A DNA stretch of 64,000 nt from a virus, in IMG/VR virus record IMGVR_UViG_3300042287_000907; one strand, 5' to 3'. Shown here piece by piece: positions 34,146 to 48,528 of this stretch. Under the pieces are notes generated by a model, which saw only the letters and a list, made by a program, of their open reading frames with translations, was not told the DNA's origin and did not search any database. Each line of letters starts with the position of its first letter. Within the stretch, counting starts at the first letter, position 1. A program made the translations under genes and the position numbers.

Positions 34146-36430
34146 CATTAGTAGCAGTAAACGGTGGATGGGTAAAAATGCGCAAAACATCAGTGCACCA
34201 TTGGCGGTTTGAAGATGGCAAGACCTGTCCTAATCCTGATAGTCAGTGGAAAATGGATCCGCCCCCTCGCGGTTGGTACTGTTGGGTATATCCTAGCGAC
34301 CATCAAGAATTTCAAGAGTGGATGAGTAAAATGTGCCCTACAACAGATATCACGCATCGGTTTAACAGTGGTGATCCTATGTGGACTGTCTACATCAGCG
34401 ACGATACTGAAGCAACATTATTTCAATTAAAGTGGTTATAATGAGCAAACCTGTAGTTATGAGTTCTGACCAGTGGAATGCGGTACTCGATCGTATCAAG
34501 CAACGAGAAAAGCCCAGCGTTTATCTTTCACGAACAAAGATGAAAGAAGTCCTGGGCTTCACTGTACGTGATCACAGAGAGTATGTCAAAGACCCAGATT
34601 ATGTAAAATTACCATCAACAGGTGAATGGCACGATCTGGAACTTGGTTGGTATGAAGGCAAAAAGAATGTACATACCGTTCGATTGGATTTCTACGATGA
34701 TCAAAAACGCACAATGTTTCTATTAAAATATGGTAACGGACAAACTTAAAATTAGTTCGCTTAATGAGATACTAGCCACCCGTGTTAGAACAGTTTACCC
34801 GTATCGTGTAAACTTTAATAATATCACACGTAATCAAATTGAAGAAATGTCCTCTTGGTGTATTAACAACTGCAAAGAACTCTGGCGTGAAGAACATGTT
34901 CATGCACTATATTTTCAATTCACAGACGATCACGATGCCATGATGTTTATGTTAAAGTTTGGCGGAAGGGGTAACGTATGATACCAGATTGGCAAACAAA
35001 TGTGCTGAATAAACTTCAAGGCATCAAACCCAGTCAGCTGATATTGACCATGGCAGGCCGAGGGACTGGCAAGAGCGTGATGAATAGCCAAGCATTTCAG
35101 AGACTTTGGGATGACTTGCATGCTCGTCCAGTAGAAGATCTCAAACTCACAGAGGGCACAGTCTACGGCTGCCAATACTACTGTGTAGAACCAGTGGGCG
35201 GAGTTTGGCATGAAATGGAAGCGTGGTGCATAAAAACTTTTGATTCCACACAGGGATCTATCTGGGGAGAAAATCCTACGCTCGCACCTGCACAGCGTTG
35301 GTATATGAACAATCGCAAGTTTTGGTTCCGCGATGATGCAGATCGTTTGATGTTTGTGATGAGGTGGCGATGACTCTAGAAGAAGAAATGCTGAATAAGG
35401 CAGGTATAGAAATGGCTCGCGAAATTGACCGCGAGGTGCTTTGGGGCATGCTCAAGGATATAGGTTGGCGCAGAGTCATGTTGGATAGATTTACAGACAA
35501 CAACCATGCTGTGGATATTACACATTGGTTAGAATCAAATTGTAAAAATCCCTTTGAACGCAGCGGTGCAGATTTTATCTTTGAATCTACAGTAGATGCT
35601 GTGAATTTTACACTAAGATGGAAGTGATAATTAAAAATCTGTCCCCTAATGATGCTATAGATATTGTTAGAGACGTTCGAGAACAGGGCTTAGTGCAGGG
35701 GAAAGATTTTGATTTTGCATTTTATCAAACTCGTTGGGATTCAATGGTTGGAGAAATACCCAAATATACAAAATTTATTTTCCATCAAGATAAATGGGCG
35801 GTTTGGTTTAGTTTAAAATATGGCGATACATAAATTCAAAGGATACCAGTTTGACCCTGCTCAGGGTTACCTAGGGCCTGCACCCGAAGGAGATACATAT
35901 AGGTATATGATAGTCAACGATCGAGTAGAGGAAATACGAGAAGTCGTTGTCCATTCGTTTACAATGGGCGACGTAGAAGATCCAGACCTGTATGCTGCAG
36001 AACCACTTTGGAAATGGCAACAAAGTGAAGAAGGTGCGTGGGTCATGTCTCACGCAGTGGAAACTCCTAGCTGGAATAGAATCCCAGATCAACTGCAATA
36101 CGGATATCGGTACGAGATTCGAGCTAAACTGTCAGGTGCTAGACTCACAGAATATCTGTTAAGGCACGGAAAATGATAGATCCGAATCCCACAGTGACAA
36201 TTTTGCGGGCTCAGAAAGCAGAAGAGCATCTCAAGGTTGATGAAAGATTGATGCAGTTATTAGATACGTATCACGCCATTGTGCTCAAAGATGATGACTT
36301 TTCAGAAAAACTCACATGGTGTTTGGAAAACTGTCAAAGCAAGTTTCGTGACCTCAGTGATCCAAATGGCCGTGCTTGGTATTTCCAAAATGAACAAGAT
36401 GCCATGCTGTTTGCGATGAGGTGGTCGTGA
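34136..36430 (+). other. Tandem array of 8 small coupled ORFs sharing a C-terminal F..D..A..F.L[KR]W-like motif
   Basis: ORFs 34136-34441, 34432-34749, 34730-34981, 34978-35373, 35364-35627, 35618-35833, 35820-36176, 36173-36430. Confidence 0.7.
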
Positions 36431-36436
36431 TAATAC

Positions 36437-36465
36437 TTGACATTTGACCTAGACGATGTTATAAT
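36437..36465 (+). promoter_or_regulatory. Sigma70-type promoter
   Basis: TTGACA-17-TATAAT. Confidence 0.85.
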
Positions 36466-36489
36466 ATTATATCATTTAGAAAGTATTAT

Positions 36490-36732
36490 ATGAACGAACA
36501 ATTAATTGGTAATTTATTTGCAGAAGCACAACGTCAAATGACCGGTAGTTCAAGCAAAGAGTTTAGCGAAAAGTTTGCCGAGTTGATTGTTCGGGAATGT
36601 ATTGACAAGATTGAAACACATCGTATTCCTGTTAGTAATAGTGCCGCAGGTGAGATGGCTTGCGAATGGACCTATGCCGCGTTGAAAGAGATTAGGGACG
36701 AGATTAAAGAACATTTCGGAGTTAAAGAATGA
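36490..36732 (+). CDS. Hypothetical phage protein
   Basis: EKFAELIVREC...IKEHFGV pattern. Confidence 0.65.
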   Translation: MNEQLIGNLFAEAQRQMTGSSSKEFSEKFAELIVRECIDKIETHRIPVSNSAAGEMACEWTYAALKEIRDEIKEHFGVKE

Positions 36733-37133
36733 AAATAGGATTTAGTTTTGGTCGATGTATTCGTGATATTGTTAACGGTGAAGTCGGCATCGATGATGTG
36801 GCATTTTTAATCACTGCCACCAACATTAAAGATGTCAGTCACTTAGACCATGTGATAGATGTGTATATGGGAGAGCCCGGATATCTTCTAGGACTAGATC
36901 ACCACAGTTGCAAAGAAGTCGCACATCTGCTTTGGAATTCTAATAGAGTGTTGCAACCAAGAGCACAGGGCATGCACAGACATGCACAGCCAGAAAATTC
37001 AGTTTGGGTAGATATGTTTCCCACAGAATGCAGTAAAAATCCTTCGGTCAAAACAGCCTGGGATCATTACAGATTTATGCTACATATAACTGAGAACGTT
37101 GATAATGAAGCAGTAGAGATTTTTAAACAATAG
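36729..37133 (+). CDS. Hypothetical protein
   Basis: MKIG.S..RCIRDIV.G.V..DDV. Confidence 0.65.
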   Translation: MKIGFSFGRCIRDIVNGEVGIDDVAFLITATNIKDVSHLDHVIDVYMGEPGYLLGLDHHSCKEVAHLLWNSNRVLQPRAQGMHRHAQPENSVWVDMFPTECSKNPSVKTAWDHYRFMLHITENVDNEAVEIFKQ

Positions 37134-37141
37134 GAGATGCC

Positions 37142-37327
37142 ATGGTCAAAGAGGGATCAAGATGGGAAGGTAACGAAGGACAAAAATTTCATGTACTACA
37201 TGTAATTGAAATCGACGGGCATACATGGGTTCATTATATCAAAGAAAATGCACCCGAAGATTCTAATCGTGAATATAGCTGTTACATAGAAAGCTTCTTA
37301 CAACGATTCAGGTCACTGCCAGAATGA
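37142..37327 (+). CDS. Hypothetical protein
   Basis: AGGAG SD. Confidence 0.6.
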   Translation: MVKEGSRWEGNEGQKFHVLHVIEIDGHTWVHYIKENAPEDSNREYSCYIESFLQRFRSLPE

Positions 37328-37593
37328 TTAGTTTTAGTTTTAATATTCGAGTACCCGGATCAAACAGGTTCAACAATATCAAATGTTGGCATGGATCTAC
37401 GCCATTCAAGCACAAATTTTGGGAACTGCAGATCTATCAATCCGCTGATATCGTAGATCTGTTTGTGAGAATAACCCACAATCAAAGTCACGCTGGTCTA
37501 CATATGGGTATTGGAATGGTGGGATATAATCTAGAATTCCAGGTCTATGATATAAGACATTGGAACCCTGAAACCCGCAGATGGCAAACTTGA
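37324..37593 (+). CDS. Hypothetical protein
   Basis: ORF coupled to its neighbour. Confidence 0.55.
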   Translation: MISFSFNIRVPGSNRFNNIKCWHGSTPFKHKFWELQIYQSADIVDLFVRITHNQSHAGLHMGIGMVGYNLEFQVYDIRHWNPETRRWQT

Positions 37594-37649
37594 GATAATA
37601 TACGCACTTAATTATGTTATAATACAACTAGGATAAGTAAAGTATACGC

Positions 37650-38225
37650 ATGGAGCAAAAAGTGAAAAAATCGGAATATTTCAATGCTGAGGATCAGATT
37701 GATCTCAAACTGCTAGAATCTAGCACATTTTTCCTTAACGGTGAAATCAACGAAGAATCTGTAGGAGAATGTGTGCGGTGGTTTCTCTATGAGAATCTTG
37801 ATGTAGCCAAGGAAAAAACACTGACACTTTATATTAATTCCACAGGCGGTGATCTTTATCAGGCATTTGCACTCATAGATGTCATGCAGGCCAGTCCTCA
37901 TAAAGTACGATGTGTAGGCATCGGTGCAGTGATGAGTGCGGCATTCTTGATCTTTGCTTCAGGCACACACGGTGAACGATACGCTGCCAAAAACACCAGT
38001 TTCATGTGCCACCAATTTTCCGAAAGTATGGACAATAAATATCACGATCTCAAAGCCACTATGCGAGAAAATGACAGCTGTAATGAACGTATGGTCTCAG
38101 TTTTGAAAGCAGCCACTGGATTGGCACCCTCGGTGATCAAGAAACGCCTGCTGCCAGCATCAGACGTTTATCTAACCGCAGAAGAAACTGTGGAAATTGG
38201 CGTAGCAGATCATCTACTGGGATAA
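37650..38225 (+). CDS. clpP: ClpP-like protease subunit
   Basis: LYINS.GG, MSAA (Ser), FMCHQ (His), D.YLTAEE....G..D. Confidence 0.88.
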   Translation: MEQKVKKSEYFNAEDQIDLKLLESSTFFLNGEINEESVGECVRWFLYENLDVAKEKTLTLYINSTGGDLYQAFALIDVMQASPHKVRCVGIGAVMSAAFLIFASGTHGERYAAKNTSFMCHQFSESMDNKYHDLKATMRENDSCNERMVSVLKAATGLAPSVIKKRLLPASDVYLTAEETVEIGVADHLLG

Positions 38226-38228
38226 TCA

Positions 38229-38477
38229 ATGAACAATGTCTATACCTTTGATCCCAAGGCCAAGGAAGATGAAGAGCGCAAGCAATCACTTTTAGAAGTC
38301 ATAGATGCTGTGCGAGATCAGATAGAGCGAGGCGAGATTCGAGAACTAGTGGCCTGCAGTTTAGACAAGGATGGCGAGGCACAGATACATGTCAGTGCCT
38401 TGGATCTACCAGGCAGTGTCGGACTGTTTGAAATTGGCAAGCATCTGCTGATCTCACAGACCAATGATGTGTTGTAA
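38229..38477 (+). CDS. Hypothetical protein
   Basis: ORF following clpP. Confidence 0.6.
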   Translation: MNNVYTFDPKAKEDEERKQSLLEVIDAVRDQIERGEIRELVACSLDKDGEAQIHVSALDLPGSVGLFEIGKHLLISQTNDVL

Positions 38478-38506
38478 AAAAGCCACATAAACTGCAATGA
38501 TCTAGG

Positions 38507-38535
38507 TTGACACATAAATAAAAAGACCGTATACT
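38507..38535 (+). promoter_or_regulatory. tRNA-array promoter P1
   Basis: TTGACA-17-TATACT with TAAATA in the spacer. Confidence 0.85.
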
Positions 38536-38590
38536 AGCAGTTGTGTTTAGCAAAGAGTCAAAACTTTTTTGCCAGAAGTGCAAATAGAGG

Positions 38591-38619
38591 TTGACACAGA
38601 GACTAAATAAATGTATAAT
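38591..38619 (+). promoter_or_regulatory. tRNA-array promoter P2
   Basis: TTGACA-17-TATAAT with TAAATA in the spacer. Confidence 0.9.
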
Positions 38620-38670
38620 TAACACATGCACTAAAAATAGTGTGTGACTTTCAAGGAAATGAAGAAGACA

Positions 38671-38814
38671 ATGAAACACGTATCATTACATATATCTTGT
38701 AAATCCGTAGCCCAGGTGGGAGGCTTTATGCCCTCATATTGGCTCGCGATTGATAGTATATCTAATGATCGTACACCAGAGCTATTACCGGGGTCCGTGG
38801 AGATGTTAGTGTAA
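38671..38814 (+). CDS. Putative attenuator leader peptide (47 aa, all 20 amino acids)
   Basis: MKHVSLHISCKSVAQVGGFMPSYWLAIDSISNDRTPELLPGSVEMLV*; AAGGA upstream; alternative in-frame ATG at 38659. Confidence 0.75.
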   Translation: MKHVSLHISCKSVAQVGGFMPSYWLAIDSISNDRTPELLPGSVEMLV

Positions 38815-38876
38815 ACATAAAATACACAGCTACTTCAAAGGACCCCAGGAATAAACACCCTGGGGTTTTTGTTTTT
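38790..38876 (+). terminator. Attenuator: antiterminator 38790-38846 overlapping terminator 38841-38876
   Basis: GGGGTCC (38790-96) pairs with GGACCCC (38840-46); alternatively GACCCCAGG pairs with CCTGGGGTT, followed by TTTGTTTTT. Confidence 0.8.
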
Positions 38877-38888
38877 ATAAAGGAAAAA

Positions 38889-39068
38889 ATGGAACAGATA
38901 GATTACAAAAAATTAAATGAACGAGTCGTTGAACAGGCTTATGAAGCTGCTTTTAATCGAAATGAACTTTCGAAAGAACAACTTCAAAAACTTATTCAAG
39001 ATAAGTTTGAACGTGCTAGAACATATCACGAATCGTTGGCAAAATTGTCGACGTTTAATGTAAACTAA
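38889..39068 (+). CDS. Small helical hypothetical protein (59 aa)
   Basis: AAGGA SD; MEQIDYKKLNERVVEQAYEAAFNRNELSKEQLQKLIQDKFERARTYHESLAKLSTFNVN*. Confidence 0.7.
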   Translation: MEQIDYKKLNERVVEQAYEAAFNRNELSKEQLQKLIQDKFERARTYHESLAKLSTFNVN

Positions 39069-39084
39069 TAGCACAAAGTGTGAA

Positions 39085-39296
39085 TATCAGGAAACGAGGT
39101 CCTGGCTCCGCACTATAAACACGGAGCGAACGGGCGGCCTGTAGGATGAAACTCTTCTTCTAGAGCGAAAAATTACAGCGTATTAAAGAGCATAGACCTG
39201 ACCTGGACTGAGATGTCGCAGACTGTGTTCTTTAATACACACTCTCCTACTCCACTTTACAAGGAGGACAGATTGACATAGTCGATGGAGAGTGTT
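39085..39296 (+). ncRNA. Structured non-coding leader of the tRNA array
   Basis: Hairpins CAGG/CCTG, GCTCCG/CGGAGC, CTGTA/TACAG, GTATTAAAGAGCA/TGTTCTTTAATAC, ACACTCTCC/GGAGAGTGT. Confidence 0.55.
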
Positions 39297-39304
39297 ACAA
39301 ATTT

Positions 39305-39393
39305 GGAGCTTGATCCCTACGGCGGACTGTAAATCCGTTGCCTTAATATGTAGGGTGGCTGGCAGTTAGGTTCGATTCCTTCAGGCTCCACCA
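39305..39393 (+). tRNA. tRNA-Tyr(GTA), atypical (9-bp acceptor, 3-bp T stem, no D arm)
   Basis: Anticodon arm GCGGA-CTGTAAA-TCCGT; ends ACCA. Confidence 0.7.
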
Positions 39394-39399
39394 AGTTTT

Positions 39400-39475
39400 G
39401 CCTCGTTCATATAACGGTCTATTATATCCGCCTGTCTAGCGGAATACAGGGGTTCGACTCCCCTACGAGGCGCCA
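39400..39475 (+). tRNA. tRNA-Asp(GTC)
   Basis: Cloverleaf, loop CTGTCTA, ends GCCA. Confidence 0.9.
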
Positions 39476-39481
39476 GTTTAT

Positions 39482-39557
39482 TCCCCAGTAGCACAGCGGT
39501 AGTTGCACTTGACTGTTAATCAAGGTGTCCGTGGTTCGATCCCACGCTGGGGAGCCA
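39482..39557 (+). tRNA. tRNA-Asn(GTT)
   Basis: Cloverleaf, loop CTGTTAA. Confidence 0.95.
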
Positions 39558-39565
39558 AGTTTTAT

Positions 39566-39640
39566 GGACCGTTCGTCTATCGGTTAGGACACTAGGTTTT
39601 CATCCTGGTAAGAGGGGTTCGACTCCCCTACGGTCTTCCA
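39566..39640 (+). tRNA. tRNA-Glu(TTC)
   Basis: Cloverleaf, loop TTTTCAT. Confidence 0.9.
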
Positions 39641-39646
39641 TATAAT

Positions 39647-39720
39647 GCGGGATTAGTTTAATGGTCAAACGAAACCTTGCCAAGGTTTAGTCAGGAGTTC
39701 GATTCTCCTATCCCGCTCCA
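39647..39720 (+). tRNA. tRNA-Gly(GCC)
   Basis: Cloverleaf, loop TTGCCAA, ends TCCA. Confidence 0.93.
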
Positions 39721-39726
39721 AGTTAT

Positions 39727-39801
39727 ATGCCCTTAGTGTTAACGGCAGCACAACGGTCTCCAAAACCGCTAGTGGGGGTTCGAATCCCTCAGGGTATGCC
39801 A
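39727..39801 (+). tRNA. tRNA-Trp(CCA)
   Basis: Cloverleaf, loop CTCCAAA. Confidence 0.9.
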
Positions 39802-39877
39802 ATTAGTATTATAAGTAATATGCTCGGCCCGGTAATTGCTATATTATGCTATCGAGCAATAATTTAGAGGATATTGC

Positions 39878-40462
39878 ATGAACGACATCATTATACTAGA
39901 CAATTTCTTACCTAAGTCATATGAAGATGAAATTGAAAAACATTTTTCTTCATTGGAGTTTCCCTGGTATTATAATCCGGGTGTTTCTTATTCACAAGAA
40001 GAGAACGCTAAATTTATTGCTAACGATAGCAATATAAAAGAAACCGACGGCTTCGTACATAGATTGATCATAGAAAATGCAAAGGTAAGTGGGTATGGCG
40101 ATCTAGTTAGGCCTATAATGTATTTTGTAGAAGACAAATTTAAAGTAAAGGTTAATTATATCATCAGAGCAAGAGCCGTAATGATTTATAAAAATTCAGT
40201 GTTTGGAGAATTTTATAATGTTCCTCATGTTGACGATATGAACAGGCATATGACATTAATTTACTATGTCAACGACAGCGATGGAGACACTGTTATCTTC
40301 AAAGAGAAATATGTAAATGATATTAGTTACAGTAAAAAGACTGTGGAACGTAGAGTTGAACCTAGAAAAGGTAGAGCTGTTTTGTTTGACGGGCACCGTT
40401 ATCATACAGGATCTGTGCCAAAATACAATAACAGAATGTTAATTAATTTCAATTTCAATTAA
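39878..40462 (+). CDS. 2OG-Fe(II) oxygenase-like protein
   Basis: PHVD, YYVNDSDGDT, H.GS.P...R..INFN. Confidence 0.8.
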   Translation: MNDIIILDNFLPKSYEDEIEKHFSSLEFPWYYNPGVSYSQEENAKFIANDSNIKETDGFVHRLIIENAKVSGYGDLVRPIMYFVEDKFKVKVNYIIRARAVMIYKNSVFGEFYNVPHVDDMNRHMTLIYYVNDSDGDTVIFKEKYVNDISYSKKTVERRVEPRKGRAVLFDGHRYHTGSVPKYNNRMLINFNFN

Positions 40463-40463
40463 T

Positions 40464-40541
40464 AGTGCGGTGGCAGAGAGGCCCAATGCAAGAGTCTGCA
40501 AAACTCTAAAGCCGTGGGTTCAAATCCCACCCGCACTTCCA
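40464..40541 (+). tRNA. tRNA-Cys(GCA) copy 1
   Basis: Loop CTGCAAA, U73. Confidence 0.9.
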
Positions 40542-40546
40542 ACAAT

Positions 40547-40638
40547 GCCAGCGAGACTTGGTAGTCAGAGAGGTTTTATAAACCTTTTAGCGCCAGATTA
40601 GCGTTCTTGAGAGGGTTCGATTCCCTCCGCTGGTACCA
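40547..40638 (+). tRNA. tRNA with TAT anticodon (nominally Ile) and long variable arm
   Basis: GCCAGCG/CGCTGGT acceptor, loop TTTATAA, T arm GAGGG-TTCGATT-CCCTC. Confidence 0.75.
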
Positions 40639-40642
40639 TTAT

Positions 40643-40720
40643 GTGTCGGTGGCAGAGAGGCCCATTGCAACGGATTGCAAATCCGTAAAACCGTCAGTTC
40701 AAATCTGACCCGACACTCCA
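40643..40720 (+). tRNA. tRNA-Cys(GCA) copy 2
   Basis: Loop TTGCAAA, U73. Confidence 0.9.
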
Positions 40721-40731
40721 GTAGAGTAAAT

Positions 40732-41325
40732 ATGTCTATGCTACCTGTTTATGAAAAATATGCGTTATTGTCTAATAATGAAAAATTATTTTTATTCAAT
40801 TTCGTATCTGGATTAAAATCAAATTCAATAATTTTAGAAGTAGGAACTTTTCTCGGTGGAAGTGCTGCTATAATGGCATCTTCTAATCCACAAGTAATCG
40901 TTCATACTATAGATGATTATAATGACAGACACGACAGGCATAAGCAATCAGTAAGTCTTATGTTGCTAGAGTCTCTAGGTGAGAACCCTAGAACTAAAGA
41001 AAATGTAGAATTGTTATTAAAAGATTACAAAAATATATTTTTCCATAAAGGTAAAAGCCCTGATAATTTTAAAAATTGGGGAACACCGATTGATGTCTAT
41101 TTCGAAGATGGTCTTCATAGAAATCCTACGTTAGAAAATAATGTAAATTACTGGACAAAATTCTTATCAAAAAATGGTTACGTGATATTTCATGATCATC
41201 GACCGTTTCTTGAAACAGATCATCCTAGTAGATTTGAAGACGTAATTGATATCGTTCAAAGATTATCTAGTAATTTTGAGATAATCTCACAAGAAGAATC
41301 TTTGATTATTTTACAACAAAAATAA
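40732..41325 (+). CDS. Class I SAM methyltransferase (Methyltransf_24-like)
   Basis: ILEVGTFLGGS, IDVYFEDG.H, G.VIFHD. Confidence 0.8.
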   Translation: MSMLPVYEKYALLSNNEKLFLFNFVSGLKSNSIILEVGTFLGGSAAIMASSNPQVIVHTIDDYNDRHDRHKQSVSLMLLESLGENPRTKENVELLLKDYKNIFFHKGKSPDNFKNWGTPIDVYFEDGLHRNPTLENNVNYWTKFLSKNGYVIFHDHRPFLETDHPSRFEDVIDIVQRLSSNFEIISQEESLIILQQK

Positions 41326-41332
41326 AATTTAT

Positions 41333-41410
41333 GCCCCTCTAGCCCAATTGGTATGAGGCGTTTCTCTCAAAAGGAAAATCGTCCCGGTTCGAGTCCGGGG
41401 AGGAGTACCA
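41333..41410 (+). tRNA. tRNA-Leu(CAA) with short variable loop
   Basis: Loop CTCAAAA; about 5-nt variable region. Confidence 0.8.
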
Positions 41411-41415
41411 AGTTT

Positions 41416-41506
41416 GGATGTAATAGTTGGTACGAGTGGGCATAAATTGCTTGCCCATGACATGTTTCGAGCATGAAGGTTGGTTCGATTCCAACAGCAT
41501 CCATCA
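41416..41506 (+). pseudogene. tRNA-like element / degenerate tRNA
   Basis: GGATG/CATCC acceptor, intact T arm, variable arm, 9-nt anticodon-position loop, ends ATCA. Confidence 0.55.
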
Positions 41507-41512
41507 AGTTAT

Positions 41513-41602
41513 GGAAGTGTGGCTGAGTCTGGCTTAAGGCAGCAGTCTTGAAAACTGAAGTTCCGCAAGGGGCCGTGGGTTCGAATCCTACCACTTCCGC
41601 CA
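41513..41602 (+). tRNA. tRNA-Ser(TGA)
   Basis: Loop CTTGAAA, long variable arm, ends GCCA. Confidence 0.93.
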
Positions 41603-41608
41603 ATGTAT

Positions 41609-41682
41609 TCCCGGATAGTTAAATGGTATAACAGTCGGCTGATAACCGGCCATTACAAGTTCGATTCTTGTTCTGGGAACCA
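41609..41682 (+). tRNA. tRNA-Ile(GAT)
   Basis: Loop CTGATAA. Confidence 0.9.
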
Positions 41683-41733
41683 ATTTTTAAAAAGGAGATC
41701 TGTCATGACAAGTGACAAGAGTGATAAGATGTC

Positions 41734-41808
41734 GGGGGTATAACTTAACGGCTAAAGTAGTAGGCTTTTAACCTATTAATCAGAGTTCGATTCTCTGTGC
41801 CCCTACCA
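41734..41808 (+). tRNA. tRNA-Lys(TTT)
   Basis: Loop CTTTTAA. Confidence 0.92.
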
Positions 41809-41875
41809 TATAAAAACACATTTTTCTGAACGCCAGTCAGTTGCCGTGCAGAGTAAGATTAGTGTGTTTCTATAT

Positions 41876-41950
41876 GGTAATGTAGCATAATGGTAGTGCA
41901 GCACCTTCATACGGTGTACAGTGAAAGTTCGACTCTTTCCATTACCACCA
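41876..41950 (+). tRNA. tRNA-Met(CAT), elongator or Ile2 type
   Basis: Loop TTCATAC, paired G1:C72. Confidence 0.85.
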
Positions 41951-41955
41951 ATTAT

Positions 41956-42031
41956 CTCTCTAAAGTGTTATCTGGTTGCATCCGCGGTTTGGGGCCGTGT
42001 GGTCTAGGTTCGAATCCTAGTAGGGAGACCA
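41956..42031 (+). tRNA. tRNA-Pro(TGG)
   Basis: Loop TTTGGGG, C1:G72. Confidence 0.9.
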
Positions 42032-42034
42032 AGT

Positions 42035-42247
42035 TTTGTAAGTGTCAGCAAGTGAAGTCACGCTGTTCAGTATTCTTCGAAGGTACTGTGCAGTAGAAGG
42101 CAAGCGGGTTCGATGCCTGGCCTATCTGTAATGGATAGGCGATAGATGGAATCCACGCTGGATGAATCCCAAGTGACGTACCGACTCCCGTCCGGACTTG
42201 TATAATCGGGTGAATGGTGCTGATAACGTGGTAGCACTACTTACAAA
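42035..42247 (+). ncRNA. Unknown structured RNA of about 210 nt between tRNA-Pro and tRNA-Gln
   Basis: Closed by TTTGTAAGT/ACTTACAAA; multiple internal helices. Confidence 0.6.
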
Positions 42248-42257
42248 TTCAATCTGT

Positions 42258-42331
42258 TGGGGGTTAGTGTAGCGGTAACACTACAGACTTTGACTCTGTC
42301 ATCACTGGTTCGATCCCAGTACCCTCTGCCA
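42258..42331 (+). tRNA. tRNA-Gln(TTG)
   Basis: Loop CTTTGAC, weak 1:72 pair, ends GCCA. Confidence 0.92.
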
Positions 42332-42335
42332 CAGA

Positions 42336-42420
42336 GTTCCGATCATCGCGGTAAGTGTAGCCGGCCGCCTATAAGGTCATCGATGATCGTGCCGTCGCGG
42401 GTAAGCGGCATCTCGGGAAC
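42336..42420 (+). ncRNA. Unknown GC-rich structured RNA of about 85 nt
   Basis: GTTCC/GGAAC closing stem, GATCATCG/CGATGATC, TGCCG/CGGCA. Confidence 0.55.
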
Positions 42421-42422
42421 AT

Positions 42423-42497
42423 CGGTCCGTAGCTCAGTGGAAGAGTTCTGGTCTTCGAAACCAGCTGTCGGGAGTTCGAATCTCTCCGGACCGGCCA
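42423..42497 (+). tRNA. tRNA-Arg(TCG)
   Basis: Loop CTTCGAA. Confidence 0.9.
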
Positions 42498-42510
42498 TTA
42501 CAAGGAGATT

Positions 42511-42717
42511 ATGATGAAACCTATGACTTTTAAAAATCGTATGAATAATGAACGTTTTGTCTGTGATGACGTCCGTGCTGTGGAAGTTATAGACGGAGAA
42601 GAATATCTCATAGTTCATCGACCCAATGAACATCGTGTTTTTAAGATGCGAAAAGATGCTTTGGAAAAAGATACCACTGTAGTGAAAGGGATATCACGAA
42701 ACTTTGCGAAAGTTTAA
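42511..42717 (+). CDS. Hypothetical protein whose 3' end overlaps tRNA-Arg(GCG)
   Basis: AAGGAG SD; 68 aa. Confidence 0.65.
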   Translation: MMKPMTFKNRMNNERFVCDDVRAVEVIDGEEYLIVHRPNEHRVFKMRKDALEKDTTVVKGISRNFAKV

Positions 42718-42747
42718 GTTCACGTTCGACTCGTGGCAGTGGTACCA
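42673..42747 (+). tRNA. tRNA-Arg(GCG)
   Basis: ACCACTG/CAGTGGT acceptor, AAACT-TTGCGAA-AGTTT, ends ACCA. Confidence 0.85.
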
Positions 42748-42753
42748 AACAAT

Positions 42754-42828
42754 GGAGTCTGTGATGTAATGGTAGCATCCGAGATTGTGATTCTCGTCGC
42801 GTGGGTTCGATTCCCATCATTCTCCCCA
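42754..42828 (+). tRNA. tRNA-His(GTG)
   Basis: G-1:C73, loop TTGTGAT; two acceptor-stem mismatches. Confidence 0.85.
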
Positions 42829-42833
42829 AAAAT

Positions 42834-42909
42834 GCTGCTTTAGCTGATGTGGTCATAGCGGCGGTCTGAAGAACCGTTGAACCAGGTTCGATTCCTGGAG
42901 GCAGCACCA
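42834..42909 (+). tRNA. tRNA-Phe(GAA)
   Basis: Loop CTGAAGA. Confidence 0.92.
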
Positions 42910-42997
42910 TATAACACTCTAGTGAAAGAACGAGCGTAGCTCTTAGGGCCTAGCCTGCGGCATTGCGGATTGCGGTGGCTAGTGTGTTTTTATATAT

Positions 42998-43081
42998 GCG
43001 AGTGTGGAGAAATGGTATACTCAGGAGACTTAAAATCTCCCGTCTTAGGGCATGAGGGTTCGAGTCCCTCCACTCGCACCA
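42998..43081 (+). tRNA. tRNA-Leu(TAA)
   Basis: Loop CTTAAAA, variable arm. Confidence 0.93.
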
Positions 43082-43106
43082 GAAATTTAGCATTGCTGTG
43101 TTAATA

Positions 43107-43742
43107 TTAATCAAAAATTCTAGCAGCTTCTTCAAAGCTACTAATTTGATTTATTGGAAATCTTAGACTAAGGCTTAATCTCGAATAATATCCTCGATTA
43201 TAATACACATTGTGAGGAATGTCTGTCCGAACCAATAAAGGGTGTGTAGCAGTTAGTTCACATTGATCAATACAGATTACATCTTCGGTGCAGTAGTTTT
43301 TATATGTAATACCACTACCATACAAGTAATCGAACATTGAAGATTTATATGGATTCGGTTGTAAAATCGGAAAGACTTCACAATTTTTTTTGAACGTCCA
43401 CCACTTGAATGCAGATTCTGAATCTGTTAATTCAAAATTAATTGCAAACGGAGTTTTTATCCATTTATTATTTTCTAAAAAAACATCAGTATGTATATGA
43501 GGATCTTCTTTGTGTTTGCTTGGATCACCTACGTGTCCAAAAATTATCATAACATTAGGAAATACGTTTTTTGATCTAAAAAAATGTTTCGCTTCGTTTG
43601 ACAGAAAATATCCTGTTTTTAAAGATGTATACAAATATTGTCTTGAGTTTGGATGTTTGTTAGATTTAGATTGAATGAGCTCGTCGAGAACATTTTCCAT
43701 TAATGGATTGAATGAAATAGATAGTTGTTTAAAACACTGCAT
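43107..43742 (-). CDS. Hypothetical protein, 2OG-Fe(II)/cupin-like
   Basis: HIHTD, FAINF, PHNV, R.SLSLRF. Confidence 0.6.
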   Translation of the reverse strand: MQCFKQLSISFNPLMENVLDELIQSKSNKHPNSRQYLYTSLKTGYFLSNEAKHFFRSKNVFPNVMIIFGHVGDPSKHKEDPHIHTDVFLENNKWIKTPFAINFELTDSESAFKWWTFKKNCEVFPILQPNPYKSSMFDYLYGSGITYKNYCTEDVICIDQCELTATHPLLVRTDIPHNVYYNRGYYSRLSLSLRFPINQISSFEEAARIFD

Positions 43743-43764
43743 CTGATATTTATTTCTAAAACTC

Positions 43765-43793
43765 TTGACAAGAGACTAAAATTGTCGTATAAT
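43765..43793 (+). promoter_or_regulatory. Internal sigma70-type promoter in the tRNA array
   Basis: TTGACA-17-TATAAT. Confidence 0.9.
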
Positions 43794-43807
43794 AGTTGTT
43801 GTAGTTA

Positions 43808-43891
43808 GCCCCGGTGGTGGAATGGTAGACACGTCGGTCTTAGAAGCCGATGTCGCAAGGCGTGAGAGTTCGAGTCTCTCCTGGGGCACCA
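43808..43891 (+). tRNA. tRNA-Leu(TAG)
   Basis: Loop CTTAGAA, variable arm. Confidence 0.93.
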
Positions 43892-44055
43892 TTAAGAAAT
43901 AGCATTAGCGGGTATCGTCTATGGACGCATAGACTTATGAAGAATAGGGCCATCTTACTCTTCTGAAATAACCGTGGACAATGGCTGATGAGGAGAATCG
44001 AACTCCACTCAGAAATCCGTCTCATCCCATAGGGTGTAATGTTATTTTTTAATGG
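43889..44055 (+). ncRNA. Unknown structured RNA of about 165 nt
   Basis: 19-bp closing stem CCATTAAGAAATAGCATTA/TAATGTTATTTTTTAATGG; internal hairpins. Confidence 0.6.
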
Positions 44056-44059
44056 TTAT

Positions 44060-44133
44060 GCCTCGTTAATTTAATGGTAGAATGCCCTCCTTACAAGTGG
44101 GATACGGCAGTTCGATTCTGTCACGAGGTACCA
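44060..44133 (+). tRNA. tRNA-Val(TAC)
   Basis: Loop CTTACAA. Confidence 0.9.
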
Positions 44134-44140
44134 GTAATAC

Positions 44141-44226
44141 GGAAGACTCCCATAATGGTATTGGAGCGGCTTGCTAAGCCGTCGATCGGCAACGGTTTCG
44201 GGGTTCGAGTCCCCGGTCTTCCGCCA
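44141..44226 (+). tRNA. tRNA-Ser(GCT)
   Basis: Loop TTGCTAA, variable arm. Confidence 0.9.
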
Positions 44227-44245
44227 AATTTTAAAAAGGAAATAT

Positions 44246-44425
44246 ATGAAACCTACTAAGAACTACAAGATGTCAAAGCCACTCAAGGCCAGCCTTGCAC
44301 TGTCAACATTCCAAGATCCACATCAAAAGGGGCAGTGGAAACGTGCTATGATTGACGCTGAACTATGTGCGGCCATCCAACCTAAACGTGAAAAAGGTCG
44401 CAAGCCCGACGCAGTCAAGCAATAA
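44246..44425 (+). CDS. Small basic hypothetical protein (59 aa)
   Basis: AAGGA SD; MKPTKNYKMSK... Confidence 0.65.
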   Translation: MKPTKNYKMSKPLKASLALSTFQDPHQKGQWKRAMIDAELCAAIQPKREKGRKPDAVKQ

Positions 44426-44431
44426 AATTCT

Positions 44432-44505
44432 GGGGGATTAGTTAAATGGGATAACATCGGCTTTGCAAGCCGAGATTGAGAGTTCGATTCTCTCATCCTC
44501 CACCA
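44432..44505 (+). tRNA. tRNA-Ala(TGC)
   Basis: G3:U70, loop TTTGCAA. Confidence 0.93.
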
Positions 44506-44522
44506 GAGATATATAGTATTAG

Positions 44523-44596
44523 GCCCTTTTAGTATAATGGTATTACACCTGTTTTGTAATCAGGTTACGGCAGTTCGATTCTGTCAAGGGGCACCA
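44523..44596 (+). tRNA. tRNA-Thr(TGT)
   Basis: Loop TTTGTAA. Confidence 0.9.
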
Positions 44597-44612
44597 ATTT
44601 TACCAAAAAGTA

Positions 44613-44641
44613 TTGACAAACACAGTAAAGAATGTTATACT
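44613..44641 (+). promoter_or_regulatory. Sigma70-type promoter
   Basis: TTGACA-17-TATACT. Confidence 0.85.
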
Positions 44642-44933
44642 TGTTTTGTTGCGTTAGAAATAACGTGACCGGCGAGATGAAGGGTAGATGAGAAAAGACA
44701 CAAGGCGTGAGCTTCATGCTTACTCCGAACTTACAATCCAACTGAACATTGGAACGTGTTTGTGTGATCCGATCCCTAATAGAATGTCATTTGTTAATCG
44801 GAAATATATGGACCTCTGTGTATTGTTAATTGCACATTGTCAAAGGAAGATTACAAACCTTCCGTTGTCCTTTGTCCGGTCTTTTACTTGACCTTTCGTC
44901 AAACCGTTATATTTTTAAAAAGAGAGAAAATCA

Positions 44934-45509
44934 ATGAACATCACACTGCGCAAGGCCAATGCTGTACAACACAGCATCACAGAAGCAATCAAGAACATCA
45001 AAATTGATCTCACTGTAGAGATCAATGAGTTCCAAACAGTCGAGGACGTTATCACTAAAGCTAACTCCACCTTGGTAGAAAATGACGGCCGCCGTCAGAA
45101 GCTGACCATGGCTCTGTACAATATCCGTGCTCTAGTAGGCACAGCCAATACCGCCAGTGGTATCGACACTGCATTGGCCAAAGCAGCCTTTATCGACAAG
45201 CGTATTGGTCAGCTAGAGGAATTGGCCAAGGCCACAGAAATCACTGCTCTAGATGTAATCAAAGGCAAGCTGGACAAAATCCGCAACGACAAGAGCGAAT
45301 CTACTCGCAGTCGCATCTACGGCTACAGCGACACAGTTACCACAGGTGTGCTAGGACTAGAACAGATCGCACAGGCCAAAGCAGAAGTGTTGAGTCTTAA
45401 AAAGCAGAAACAGAAGATCAACGACGAAGTGTTAGAACTCAACATCAAGACAGAGATTCCTCTTTCAGAAGATGTAGTTGCTGTATTGCAGGCCGAAGCA
45501 TTAATTTAA
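44934..45509 (+). CDS. Hypothetical coiled-coil protein
   Basis: Heptad-rich 191-aa ORF behind a long structured leader. Confidence 0.75.
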   Translation: MNITLRKANAVQHSITEAIKNIKIDLTVEINEFQTVEDVITKANSTLVENDGRRQKLTMALYNIRALVGTANTASGIDTALAKAAFIDKRIGQLEELAKATEITALDVIKGKLDKIRNDKSESTRSRIYGYSDTVTTGVLGLEQIAQAKAEVLSLKKQKQKINDEVLELNIKTEIPLSEDVVAVLQAEALI

Positions 45510-45515
45510 AACTAT

Positions 45516-45589
45516 CGCGGGATAGAGAAACGGTAACTCACGAGTCTCATAAGCTCGAGATCCTGGTTCGATTCCGGGTCCCGCAACCA
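45516..45589 (+). tRNA. Initiator tRNA-fMet(CAT)
   Basis: C1:A72 mismatch, CGCGGG start, loop CTCATAA. Confidence 0.88.
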
Positions 45590-45603
45590 ACCATAAGGTA
45601 CGT

Positions 45604-45831
45604 ATGAAAAATAAATCACTGAGTCGTGGTCCCGAAATTGACACAGAAAAATGTGTGGAAAATATAGGCGGTAATAGATTTGACTTGGTGCTGATTGCAT
45701 CAGCTCGTGCCAGAGAGCTCAGTCGCAGACACAAGGCAGCTGAACTACAGACGCAGATGAACGCACCTGTGGCAGCACTGTTAGATGTGCAGTCAGGTGC
45801 GGTGGGTCGAGAATACCTGAAAAAAGTCTAG
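45604..45831 (+). CDS. rpoZ: RNA polymerase omega subunit-like protein
   Basis: CVE.IGGNRFDLVLIASARAREL...V.AL..V..G. Confidence 0.85.
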   Translation: MKNKSLSRGPEIDTEKCVENIGGNRFDLVLIASARARELSRRHKAAELQTQMNAPVAALLDVQSGAVGREYLKKV

Positions 45832-45860
45832 TCTTAAGATTATAGATTAAATAAATCTAT

Positions 45861-45934
45861 GCGGGGTTCGTATAGTGGTAATACCTGAGCCTTCCAAGCT
45901 CATGCGGAGAGTTCGATTCTCTTACCCCGCTCCA
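45861..45934 (+). tRNA. tRNA-Gly(TCC)
   Basis: Loop CTTCCAA, ends TCCA. Confidence 0.93.
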
Positions 45935-45948
45935 AATAAAATAACAAG

Positions 45949-46485
45949 ATGAAAATAATCGTTACCGGACATACGAGAGGTCTAGGAAAAGGCATTTATG
46001 ATTATTTTTCTAAAGACAATGAAGTTGTTGGATTTTCAAAAAGTAATGGGTTTGATATCACTGACCCTGATTGTAGAACAGAAATAGTAAATGCATCTGA
46101 AGATGCAGATATTTTTGTGAATAACGCACATGTTAATGGAGATTCTGCACAACTGCATTTACTTAAAGATATGCACGAACTTTGGAAACATCAAAATAAA
46201 ATTATAATTAATGTAAGTAGTTTTAGATCCACTTTTGTAGATGGCAATTTTGAATTTTCAGAGTCTTTTCGAGTTAAGAAAGAGTTGGATCTTTTTTGTA
46301 CAAAAAATCAACACGTATTAAAATATCCTTATCTAATAAATCTTAGACCCGGCCTTATTGATACAGACAGAACACGCAATGAACAGGGTAAAAAAATGAA
46401 TGTCCAAGACGTAATTGTGGTATTAGATTTTATTTTGAAAAACAAAGATATTTTTAAGATACTAGATATAGGCTTTAAAGGCTGA
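45949..46485 (+). CDS. Short-chain dehydrogenase-like protein
   Basis: VTGHTRGLG, FVNNA, IINVSS, PGLIDT. Confidence 0.8.
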   Translation: MKIIVTGHTRGLGKGIYDYFSKDNEVVGFSKSNGFDITDPDCRTEIVNASEDADIFVNNAHVNGDSAQLHLLKDMHELWKHQNKIIINVSSFRSTFVDGNFEFSESFRVKKELDLFCTKNQHVLKYPYLINLRPGLIDTDRTRNEQGKKMNVQDVIVVLDFILKNKDIFKILDIGFKG

Positions 46486-46515
46486 AAAAATTATTAAATT
46501 CTCAGAAGACACATA

Positions 46516-47091
46516 ATGTACAAAACGATAGACAAAAATGAAATTTTTCAAAAATTTGATTTCTCATCGTTGATCACCAAGCAAGATGATCTCGAAGCCT
46601 GTGAAATTATCAAGACGATCATAGCTGACGGTAACTATTTTACTAATTCGCCTAAGTATCAAACCAAAGAAAACATCTTTGCTAGATCAGAAGCTGTATG
46701 GTTAAAATACCGTGTGAGTTTCATGATGAGTGCGTTCATGTATCTAGGCCGTGAAGCCAAAATATCTAACATGATGGCCTGGAGTTTTATGACCAATCTC
46801 GAGGGTGCCGAAAACCGTGATAATCTCTGGCATCATCATTGGCATCCTACTACCCCCACCGCACAAATACTCAGTGGTATTTGGTATCTACACATACCCG
46901 AGGATGTTAAAGATCGAGACTATTGCGGTACAGAGATGGCACCGGGGGGTCCTCAATCTGATGACAGATATTTTGTGCGTCCCGCAGATGGTAATTGGTT
47001 GATCTATCCCGGCAACATGTGGCATCGCCCCGGAATCGTACAGAGCGATCAATACAGATTTGTCTTAGCCGCAGACATTCAAATAGACTAA
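46516..47091 (+). CDS. Hypothetical protein, 2OG-Fe(II)/cupin-like
   Basis: WHHH, SGIWYL, YP...WHRP, RFV.AAD. Confidence 0.6.
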   Translation: MYKTIDKNEIFQKFDFSSLITKQDDLEACEIIKTIIADGNYFTNSPKYQTKENIFARSEAVWLKYRVSFMMSAFMYLGREAKISNMMAWSFMTNLEGAENRDNLWHHHWHPTTPTAQILSGIWYLHIPEDVKDRDYCGTEMAPGGPQSDDRYFVRPADGNWLIYPGNMWHRPGIVQSDQYRFVLAADIQID

Positions 47092-47092
47092 A

Positions 47093-47167
47093 CTGGCCAT
47101 AGTATAATGGATAATACAGCGAGCTTCTACCTCGCGAATGTGGGTTCGATTCCTGCTGGCCGGACCA
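47093..47167 (+). tRNA. tRNA-Arg(TCT)
   Basis: Loop CTTCTAC. Confidence 0.9.
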
Positions 47168-47171
47168 CGCC

Positions 47172-47245
47172 GCTCTCATAGTATAAAAGCATTACACTAC
47201 ATTGGTAATGTAGAAACGGTGGAGCATTACCACCTGAGAGCACCA
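47172..47245 (+). tRNA. tRNA-Thr(GGT) with non-canonical T loop
   Basis: Loop TTGGTAA; T arm GGTGG-AGCATTA-CCACC. Confidence 0.8.
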
Positions 47246-47246
47246 C

Positions 47247-47275
47247 TTGACAAAAATTGATAAATGTAGTATAAT
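47247..47275 (+). promoter_or_regulatory. Sigma70-type promoter
   Basis: TTGACA-17-TATAAT. Confidence 0.9.
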
Positions 47276-47303
47276 ACTAGTATACAAATTATCAAAGGCA
47301 TAT

Positions 47304-47726
47304 ATGCAGATCATCATGGAAGGTAGGGCTAGTCCTACCAAATCAATCATAGAAACCTCCGCGAATTTCTTTGCCAAAGAACTGGGATTGAGCCGTAGCC
47401 GGTTCACTCTGTTGATCATGACTGAACGAGGAATGGCCCGTAAAGAAGGCATGCGAGGTGCGGTGCATAAAGTAGGTCCAAAATTTCTTACCATGATCAT
47501 AGACTCTGGGCTAGAGTTTGAAAGACTGATAATCACCCTGGCACACGAAATGATACATGTCAAACAATATGCTCGCGGTCAGATCAAATCCAGCCGCAGT
47601 TGCAAAACACACTATTGGATGGGCCGGCACATACGTAAAAGCTATTACGATCAACCTTGGGAAATCGAAGCCTATACCAAAGAACGTGTGCTAGCCAATA
47701 AAATTTTTGCGATAACAGGAGCATGA
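47304..47726 (+). CDS. Zinc metallopeptidase-like protein
   Basis: LAHEMIHVKQ (HExxH), PWEIEAY. Confidence 0.8.
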   Translation: MQIIMEGRASPTKSIIETSANFFAKELGLSRSRFTLLIMTERGMARKEGMRGAVHKVGPKFLTMIIDSGLEFERLIITLAHEMIHVKQYARGQIKSSRSCKTHYWMGRHIRKSYYDQPWEIEAYTKERVLANKIFAITGA

Positions 47727-47727
47727 C

Positions 47728-48267: not shown

Positions 48268-48458
48268 ATATATCAAGTATCCAACGATATCAAATACAAC
48301 AGTACAATCTGGAACAAAGAAATCTGCAAGAAAAGCGAGAAGAAGATTATCGTAAGTTAGTAGAACGAAAAAACTTTGAGCAGATTGTTGCAGAACGGGT
48401 GGCAAGAAATCTACGGTTAGATCTAGACAAAGGTAGAAACATTGATCTAGAATGTTAA
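48264..48458 (+). CDS. Hypothetical protein
   Basis: Coupled ORF; KGRNID C-terminus. Confidence 0.6.
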   Translation: MNISSIQRYQIQQYNLEQRNLQEKREEDYRKLVERKNFEQIVAERVARNLRLDLDKGRNIDLEC

Positions 48459-48499
48459 ACTGTTGTAAAAATACAACATCTAGACCCTGTTAATTTCGA

Positions 48500-48528
48500 T
48501 TGACAGGGTTTCTTTTTGGTGCTATAAT
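48500..48528 (+). promoter_or_regulatory. Sigma70-type promoter overlapping a terminator-like hairpin
   Basis: TTGACA-17-TATAAT; ACCCTGT/ACAGGGT stem followed by a T run. Confidence 0.8.

Follow-up and report, generated by a model that had tools for sequence, protein, structure and literature searches.

A Putative Leader-Peptide Attenuator Heading a Jumbo Phage tRNA Operon Mirrors the tRNA Set Encoded Downstream

The window analyzed here, IMG/VR virus record IMGVR_UViG_3300042287_000907, is a 64,000-nucleotide (nt) contig of an uncultured freshwater jumbo phage. Ahead of a large array of transfer RNA (tRNA) genes, it carries a leader in which the end of a short open reading frame (ORF) forms one arm of an antiterminator hairpin that overlaps an intrinsic terminator. 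We consider it probable that this element is a ribosome-mediated (leader-peptide) transcription attenuator heading the phage tRNA operon, likely as part of a closed feedback loop. Comparison with related phages indicates that the sensing part of the leader reflects which tRNAs are encoded behind it, which is a new observation.

A sequence-only reading of the window had proposed a sensor of nearly all tRNAs composed of two near-consensus promoters, a 47-codon ORF, an antiterminator hairpin, an overlapping terminator, and tRNA genes for all 20 amino acids. Each of these components was verified (Table 1), as were the complete amino acid set and the codon diversity that it had reported for the ORF. 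Furthermore, the ORF, the antiterminator, the terminator, and the presence of all 20 amino acids proved to be conserved and covarying across more than 100 diverged relatives.

RESULTS

A conserved leader ORF with a complete amino acid set

Relatives of the window phage were IMG/VR contigs of up to 364 kb. Scans with two neighboring proteins, the ClpP-like protein, which served as an anchor at 25 to 95% identity, and a 59-amino-acid (59-aa) protein, yielded 115 loci, and a scan for the terminator motif yielded 120 more. The DNA identity of the leader region among relatives was 70 to 93%. The ORF was kept in 129/129 unique leader variants from these phage contigs, and every locus from the terminator-motif scan had a leader ORF, with zero exceptions. 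Among 44 unique close homologs, the ATG and the stop were both identical in 40, with ORFs of 46 to 51 codons, and the remaining 4 carried a diverged leader ORF ending at the equal position. A DNA search of cultured phage genomes with positions 38200 to 39400 gave zero matches, and the leader family is known from IMG/VR contigs only.

In the alignment of relatives, 184/200 gap runs in the head of the ORF (codons 1 to 37) came in multiples of 3, and the two alternative frames of the leader contained 3 to 4 stops on average. Frame-preserving indels and stop-rich alternative frames form a strong coding signature of this putatively translated ORF.

All 20 amino acids are encoded within codons 1 to 37 of the window leader, and the 32 codons at positions 38698 to 38793 include 31 different ones. 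The window's own long ORFs reach at most 30 different codons in any 32-codon window and never 31 (approximately 14,500 windows). The complete set was encoded in 39/40 close homologs. In a wider set of 127 unique peptides from the terminator scan, 95 contained all 20 amino acids, 20 contained 19, 11 contained 18, and 1 contained 16. The rate of complete peptides expected by chance is 2.1% as judged from the window's own proteins (47-residue windows), 2.5% when residues are drawn independently, and 5% when the nucleotides are shuffled. After single-linkage clustering, 29/51 clusters at 70% identity and 7/13 at 50% identity were complete, compared to 2 to 5% under the null. One leader of 35 codons holds all 20 amino acids, for which the expectation is 0.17%.

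The peptide itself drifts. Cysteine occurs exactly once in 39/40 peptides, yet in 12 alignment columns; among the 40 close homologs, histidine is found in 10 columns and tyrosine alternates between two sites. Cysteine and histidine are thus present at about one copy per peptide, at shifting positions. When the residues were shuffled within columns, 7.8/40 peptides stayed complete, with a maximum of 17 in 3,000 trials, compared to the observed 39/40. As judged from these alignments, the conserved property is the complete amino acid set and not the peptide sequence. At their C-terminal ends, the leaders use one of two frames for the RNA motif GGGTCC (..PGSVEMLV versus ..RVRRTVV), indicating that the conserved item there is the RNA rather than the peptide. 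Similarly, GATCG within the near-invariant motif AATGATCGTACACCAGAG is invariant including third codon positions (39 sequences), which argues for a constraint on the nucleotides. AATGATCGTACACCAGAG may act as a pause signal. Neither the leader peptide nor the 59-aa protein was assigned to a family in searches of Pfam, PHROGs, and Atlas.

By strict wobble rules, the head of the window leader samples 23/27 phage tRNA species; gene windows of the same length sample 16.4 species on average, and 0.014% of them reach 23. This corrects the earlier proposal that the leader samples nearly every tRNA, and tRNA-Arg(TCG) is never sampled in the family. The stricter idea that each leader samples every phage tRNA was rejected, since sampling is rare or absent for Arg(TCG), Lys(CTT), Val(GAC), and Leu(CAA). 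We also asked whether the complete set lies 5' of the antiterminator hairpin more often than expected by chance. A per-leader permutation was not significant (P of about 0.3), and only the aggregate count of 80/94 against approximately 31 expected, which is not phylogenetically independent, is suggestive.

Match between the leader head and the downstream tRNA genes

When a tRNA was encoded downstream of the leader, its amino acid was missing from the head in 4.1% of the cases (54/1319), compared to 50% (19/38) when the tRNA was seen upstream only. Furthermore, head and array agreed in 404/475 cells against 377.5 ± 5.4 after swapping the heads among genomes (p = 5e-5; 25 clusters, each with at least 17 downstream tRNAs). 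Many loci in the comparison of leaders and arrays are truncated.

Individual relatives, designated here by G and L numbers, illustrate this match. In G008, the 17 amino acids of the head, from which Asp, Glu, and Tyr are missing, are precisely those served by the downstream tRNAs, and tRNA-Glu, tRNA-Tyr, and tRNA-Asp are located upstream of the leader. Of the two attenuators in G006, the second has a head that encodes 15 amino acids, without Cys, Asp, Glu, Leu, and Tyr, and is followed by a block of 16 tRNAs that serves exactly these 15. Ser (TCN) and Leu are abundant in the first G006 leader, which has AGA as the sole Arg codon in its head and directly precedes tRNA-Ser(TGA), tRNA-Arg(TCT), and three tRNA-Leu genes. 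The codon classes of G006 are divided as the tRNA blocks are, with AGA, TCN, and GGG in the first leader versus CGY, AGC, and GGY in the second. In addition, the G008 leader and the second G006 leader are homologous and differ by Leu-to-Thr and Cys-to-Arg, and at these differences tRNA-Leu and tRNA-Cys are downstream of the leader in one of the contigs but upstream of it in the other.

The same relation was seen in a clade with a leader devoid of Cys and Glu (L118, L122, L134, L157, L164, and L202). Here, the leader is located inside the array, with tRNA-Asp, tRNA-Glu, tRNA-Tyr, and tRNA-Cys upstream of it. The head of L192 lacks Asp and Glu, and tRNA-Glu and tRNA-Asp are upstream. At the level of codons, AGR was present in the head of 20/26 leaders with tRNA-Arg(TCT) downstream and of 0/6 with this tRNA upstream only, and ATA was present in 35/36 leaders with a downstream tRNA-Ile(TAT). 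A strict rule by which a missing residue always corresponds to an upstream tRNA was rejected, with G003, G010, L235, and L129 as counterexamples.

Because the codon content of the leader tracks the downstream tRNAs, the pan-tRNA sensor of the sequence-only reading can be sharpened into a panel matched to the tRNAs that it would control. This match supports a feedback gauge of the phage's own tRNA supply.

Two exclusive hairpins with a shared, covarying base

The transcript from 38626 to 38880 is predicted to fold at -79.8 kcal/mol (z = -5.0 compared to shuffled sequences). The small stem-loop at its 5' end is kept in relatives with different sequences (CACTA/TAGTG, CGTTA/TAACG, and GACAGCA/TGTTGTC). 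An equivalent of hairpin I forms in 30 diverged representatives, with a mean z of -2.2. Hairpin I is a candidate RNA polymerase pause or synchronizing hairpin.

The 5' arm of hairpin II, the predicted antiterminator, is the end of the ORF. Its basal pairing is GGGGTCC/GGACCCC and its inner helices are TGGAG/CTTCA and GTGTA/TACAC, as initially described. Hairpin II forms in every folded relative, with varying inner helices (GTGTA/TACAC, GAGTT/AACTC, CTAAGT/ACTTAG, and GGTTAC/GTAAC). In all folded relatives, the stop codon is found at the apical end of the 5' arm, 20 to 31 nt 5' of the GGACCC arm. Terminator and antiterminator have positions 38841 to 38846 in common. A simple terminator scan passed over the terminator solely owing to its 9-nt loop.

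Covariation was counted on anchored columns over 66 representatives, with each relative folded singly. RNAalifold on a MAFFT alignment returned the terminator as the consensus structure, along with two short helices only, the variable arms being misaligned. On the anchored columns, the basal helix of the antiterminator was 96.5% paired. In the terminator, 100% of the cells were paired, and four pairs showed compensatory changes. Both helices beat shuffled and slid controls.

Base 38846 (column 120 of alignment A2) covaries with two partners. With position 38790 (column 44), in the antiterminator, the pairs were G:C in 29, A:U in 24, and G:U in 7 sequences; with position 38862 (column 136), in the terminator, they were C:G in 31, U:A in 24, and U:G in 11. 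A second triple change was found in L076. At least 14 changes of base 38846 map to the tree of the region. Across independent pairs, the partner of this base in the antiterminator changed concordantly 4.7 times versus 0.1 in the opposite direction, the sign test being limited to six supported pairs. This covariation is the pattern expected for two mutually exclusive functional structures.

A search of positions 36000 to 49000 with cmscan (E values up to 1) returned tRNA-clan hits and three subthreshold Plastid-ycf2 chance matches antisense to tRNAs. Within 38500 to 38900 it found nothing, neither a T-box nor a His, Trp, Thr, Leu, or Phe leader family.

Ribosome position and predicted helix choice

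We then folded the leader with a ribosome masking successive positions, in an equilibrium thermodynamic model. A first version permitted pairs enclosing the ribosome, which led to a spuriously low terminator probability at the stop codon; in a second one, the downstream segment only was folded. Without a ribosome, the modeled probability of the terminator in the window leader was 0.00, and the antiterminator won. With the A site at codons 37 to 47, it was 0.68 to 0.97. In downstream-only folding of 30 diverged representatives, most favored the terminator over the last 8 to 13 codons, and most gave the antiterminator or a mixed state at earlier ribosome positions. L103, L010, L219, and L196 were exceptions to this pattern.

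From this pattern, finished translation should lead to termination and upstream delay should lead to read-through. This is in agreement with the earlier proposal that the antiterminator is favored by a stall upstream and the terminator by a ribosome that has reached the end of the ORF, as far as an equilibrium model can speak to it. We infer a kinetic race, as well as the direction and the size of the response.

Promoters, transcript start, and gene order

The coordinates of the features are given in Table 1. Both hexamers of the second promoter (P2) are conserved in the alignment of relatives, and tandem promoters precede the leader also in the distant relatives G001, G003, G008, and G010. 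Purine runs of the AAGAGAAAGCAAATG type occur in relatives at the position of the candidate ribosome-binding region. In several clades, a tRNA-Met(CAT) gene ends 50 to 90 nt before the leader ATG (L118, positions 4358 to 4433; L157; L219; L229; and L193). At this distance there is hardly space for a separate promoter, and the leader is therefore perhaps cotranscribed with, or transcribed from inside, the preceding tRNA gene.

TABLE 1 Features of the leader and the tRNA operon in the window
Feature	Position	Strand	Description
Promoter P1	38507-38535	+	TTGACA-17-TATACT; sigma-70 type, 11/12 consensus matches
Promoter P2	38591-38619	+	TTGACA-17-TATAAT; sigma-70 type, 12/12 consensus matches; predicted transcript start at about 38626
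5' stem-loop	38626-38645	+	Beginning of the transcript; predicted by folding
Candidate ribosome-binding region	38653-38668	+	Purine-rich, AAGGA then GAAGAAGA, upstream of the conserved ATG; from sequence reading, putative function
Leader ORF	38671-38814	+	47 codons plus TAA; codons 1-37 (38671-38781), sensing head; last 10 codons in 5' arm of hairpin II
Hairpin I	38678-38772	+	Long, imperfect, from ORF codons 3-34; -35.2 kcal/mol, z = -2.9
Near-invariant motif AATGATCGTACACCAGAG	38764-38781	+	Asn-Asp-Arg-Thr-Pro-Glu; from alignment of relatives
Hairpin II (predicted antiterminator)	38788-38849	+	Basal helix 38790-38796 with 38840-38846; -27.6 kcal/mol, z = -4.3
Leader stop codon (TAA)	38812-38814	+	Apical end of hairpin II 5' arm
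Intrinsic terminator	38841-38876	+	9-bp G+C-rich stem (38841-38849 with 38859-38867), 9-nt loop, T run to 38876; -18.2 kcal/mol
59-aa gene	38889-39068	+	Conserved, charged protein; predicted first read-through product; relatives 46-81% identical at equivalent position
tRNA array	39304-47242	+	About 30 genes for all 20 amino acids (ARAGORN and Rfam); internal consensus promoters at 43765, 44613, and 47247

The order leader, 59-aa gene, tRNA array was kept in all relatives examined. The 59-aa gene has a good Shine-Dalgarno sequence and starts 13 nt past the T run of the terminator; a promoter scan and sequence reading found no promoter between the two. In most relatives, no other gene lies between it and the terminator, and it is missing where too little space is left before the first tRNA, as in L118.

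ARAGORN identified 27 tRNAs downstream of the leader, and Rfam added more. Among the latter is 39304 to 39390 (+), missed by ARAGORN, which gave a weak tRNA-Sec-like match in Rfam (28.6 bits). In relatives, a tRNA-Tyr(GTA) of 83 to 89 nt occupies the first array position, and 39304 to 39390 is probably the tRNA-Tyr of the window array. Another tRNA-Sec-like match (35.7 bits) corresponds to a 92-nt tRNA at 40547 to 40638 (+) with the anticodon TAT (Ile, reading ATA), whose length is conserved in many relatives. Between tRNA-Trp and tRNA-Cys, the array contains a gene of the 2OG-Fe(II) oxygenase family at 39878 to 40462 (+) (PF13640, E = 8e-8; phrog_274).

Directly upstream of the leader is the gene of the ClpP-like serine protease, at 37650 to 38225 (+) (PF00574, E = 3e-31). 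Elsewhere, the window carries a two-piece (permuted) transfer-messenger RNA (tmRNA) gene at 4238 to 4688 (+) with the tag ANADTFDFSAMSFTGNTVRGAANESRFALAA. A tmRNA was also found in L082, L083, L088, L122, and L134, and the tags of relatives are shorter, e.g., ANDEQFALAA. A lone tRNA with the anticodon CTA (amber suppressor) is found distant from the main array in L239 (G003:C1:349900-350600) and L241 (G001:C1:174000-174800); G001 and G003 are complete relatives of approximately 360 kb, and in G001 a consensus promoter precedes this tRNA. These lone CTA tRNAs are a possible hint that stop codons are recoded in this group of phages.

DISCUSSION

A model for the leader

In the attenuator that we propose, host RNA polymerase would initiate at P1 or P2 and transcribe the 47-codon leader. 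The first 37 codons or so would serve as a panel presenting each amino acid and most of the codon classes read by the tRNAs encoded downstream. A ribosome keeping pace to the last 10 codons or so, or to the stop, would melt the 5' arm of hairpin II, leaving GGACCCC free for the terminator, and transcription would stop at about 38870 to 38876. A ribosome delayed at any codon of the panel would instead allow hairpin II to form first and to sequester the 5' arm of the terminator, so that the polymerase would read through into the 59-aa gene and the tRNA array. Translation of the ORF and regulated read-through are what the model predicts from these elements. Slow decoding would thereby produce more phage tRNA, and enough tRNA would shut the operon off. 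Such a feedback loop is the most likely reading because the panel coevolves with the tRNAs placed behind the switch.

We lean, though only slightly, toward a codon-resolved homeostat, in which the panel is written in the codons of the controlled tRNAs and rewritten as tRNA genes move, and in which the output is proportional to the decoding delay. The homeostat would also be a tripwire for host defenses that cleave tRNAs. If starvation or anticodon nucleases depleted the host tRNAs, the same switch would flip, and a role against such nucleases is possible.

Several observations weigh against this interpretation. The ribosome-binding site is weak or oddly spaced, with AAGGA 13 nt 5' of the ATG. 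Intermediate or terminator-favoring folds were obtained at some upstream ribosome positions (window codons 14 to 16; L103, L010, and L219). The leader of G003 lacks Cys and Leu although both tRNAs are encoded 5.8 kb downstream, behind an internal promoter; that of G001 lacks Cys, for which the tRNA is 20.7 kb away; that of G010 lacks Asp with tRNA-Asp downstream; and the clade without Cys and Glu retains Tyr with tRNA-Tyr upstream. Some tRNAs are never sampled, e.g., Arg(TCG) in 0/53 leaders, and several of the matches between panel and array share ancestry, so that there are fewer independent events than the counts suggest. Finally, extra tRNA would not cure amino acid starvation, which makes the physiological signal uncertain.

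Alternative explanations

The leader could be a translation-coupled attenuator with the opposite or another logic, in which a coupled ribosome promotes read-through, as in pyrBI, or which gauges general translation capacity or the stage of infection (ribosome shutoff, antibiotics, or ribosome-targeting defense). An element built in this way would respond to global ribosome slowing too, as does the upstream ORF (uORF) of whiB7 (PMC10274678), and for some relatives the equilibrium folds do not give a clear answer at every ribosome position. However, with the stop codon 26 nt 5' of the terminator stem, a ribosome terminating there is unable to cover the terminator in the manner of pyrBI, and in the folding model the terminator arm becomes available once a ribosome occupies the last 10 codons. 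A general gauge, in turn, would have no need for a complete amino acid set or for one that loses members as tRNA genes are relocated to positions upstream of the switch. We regard this alternative as unlikely.

It is even more doubtful that the ORF is an ordinary gene for a 47-aa protein with its own promoters and terminator, whose peptide is functional and whose RNA structures just stabilize or end the transcript. The ORF is indeed conserved with a coding signature, a core W..(I/L)N S L S (N/Y) D R T P E is recognizable in many relatives, and the unit has a strong promoter and a terminator of its own. Beyond this core, however, the peptide is poorly conserved, and within it the nucleotides do not vary, third codon positions included. 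Two frames are used for the C-terminal part with the RNA motif retained, rare residues shift and yet are never lost, and the amino acid content tracks the downstream tRNA set. Moreover, one base covaries with partners in two exclusive helices, the downstream gene lacks a promoter of its own, and no protein family match was found in Pfam or PHROGs.

Equally improbable is that the terminated transcript of about 250 nt is mainly a stable trans-acting regulatory RNA, possibly with a dual function, and that read-through is mere leakage: the transcript is highly structured with a conserved 5' stem-loop, and attenuator-derived small RNAs such as rnTrpL have been reported (PMC6614838), but the complete amino acid set and the match to the downstream tRNAs would be left unexplained and no Rfam family matched, and such an RNA would in any case be compatible with the attenuator rather than exclusive of it. 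Overall, these alternatives explain less than the attenuator with a matched panel, since none of them covers the rare residues that move and are kept, the GGGTCC read in two frames, the three-way covariation, and the match between panel and array.

Relation to known leaders

The proposed attenuator resembles those of the trp/his type (trpL, hisL, leuL, thrL, pheL, and the multivalent ilv leaders) in its short leader ORF, putatively translated in the phage, and in the terminator ahead of the regulated genes. In both, the antiterminator overlaps the 5' arm of the terminator and the position of the ribosome selects the helix, which in the phage leader is a modeled property, and the regulatory codons match what the operon supplies. 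However, trp/his-type leaders regulate biosynthetic enzymes and repeat one to three kinds of codons, whereas the phage leader precedes tRNAs and presents about one copy of nearly each amino acid, covering 23/27 tRNA classes. The default without translation also differs: in the folding model of the phage leader, the antiterminator forms alone and would give read-through, in contrast to the superattenuation of the trp/his type. In addition, the phage ORF is long (47 codons) and mostly embedded in a hairpin, and it has no sequence or Rfam relationship to trp/his-type leaders.

T-box riboswitches are similar in that a leader RNA chooses between terminator and antiterminator and reports tRNA status ahead of translation-related genes. 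The phage leader, however, contains a conserved ORF and neither a specifier nor a T-box motif, and it has no Rfam match, whereas a T-box binds one uncharged tRNA directly and without an ORF. Antibiotic-responsive leaders (ermC, bmrCD, vmlR, and msrD types) also use a stall in a short ORF and alternative RNA structures to switch expression, but they need particular arrest motifs of nascent peptide or drug, whereas the phage leader conserves a codon set and not an arrest sequence.

Transfer RNA genes are usually described as promoter-controlled, by growth rate and the stringent response. A literature search found no description of leader-peptide attenuation of tRNA genes in cells or phages, within an incomplete coverage of journals.

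The sequence-only reading had cited no earlier description of such a pan-tRNA sensor. Broad sensing does have a precedent: the uORF of whiB7 in Mycobacterium smegmatis encodes 19/20 amino acids, and sensing has been demonstrated for many of them (PMC10274678). Its efficient translation leads to termination and stalling leads to antitermination, and uORFs without Trp or His codons lose the response to the corresponding starvation (PMC10274678). The removal of these codons indicates that the amino acid content sets what is sensed, which provides a precedent for broad sensing that is backed by experiment. The whiB7/wblC uORF of Actinobacteria is, by analogy, the closest published functional counterpart of the phage leader, which is no member of that family. 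The whiB7 uORF is rich in Ala (25 to 40%) and its amino acid set is not maintained in full, that of Mycobacterium tuberculosis lacking several amino acids (PMC10274678). In contrast, the phage leader has 2 Ala in 47 residues and no homology to the whiB7 uORF, its completeness is under selection, and it matches a tRNA set. Moreover, whiB7 controls a transcription factor of the WhiB family, whereas a 59-aa ORF and tRNAs lie downstream of the phage leader.

Biological significance

If the proposed attenuator is correct, it would answer how giant phages time the expression of their large tRNA sets, and it would represent a natural sensor of overall decoding speed, codon by codon. It would also be a compact part of about 250 nt able to report the availability of any aminoacyl-tRNA. 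The coevolution of leader and array makes the hypothesis testable by codon swaps, and it makes the arms race between phage tRNAs and host tRNA nucleases measurable with a simple reporter. If the homeostat holds as well, tRNA genes in these phages would be under direct feedback from the decoding performance of their own products.

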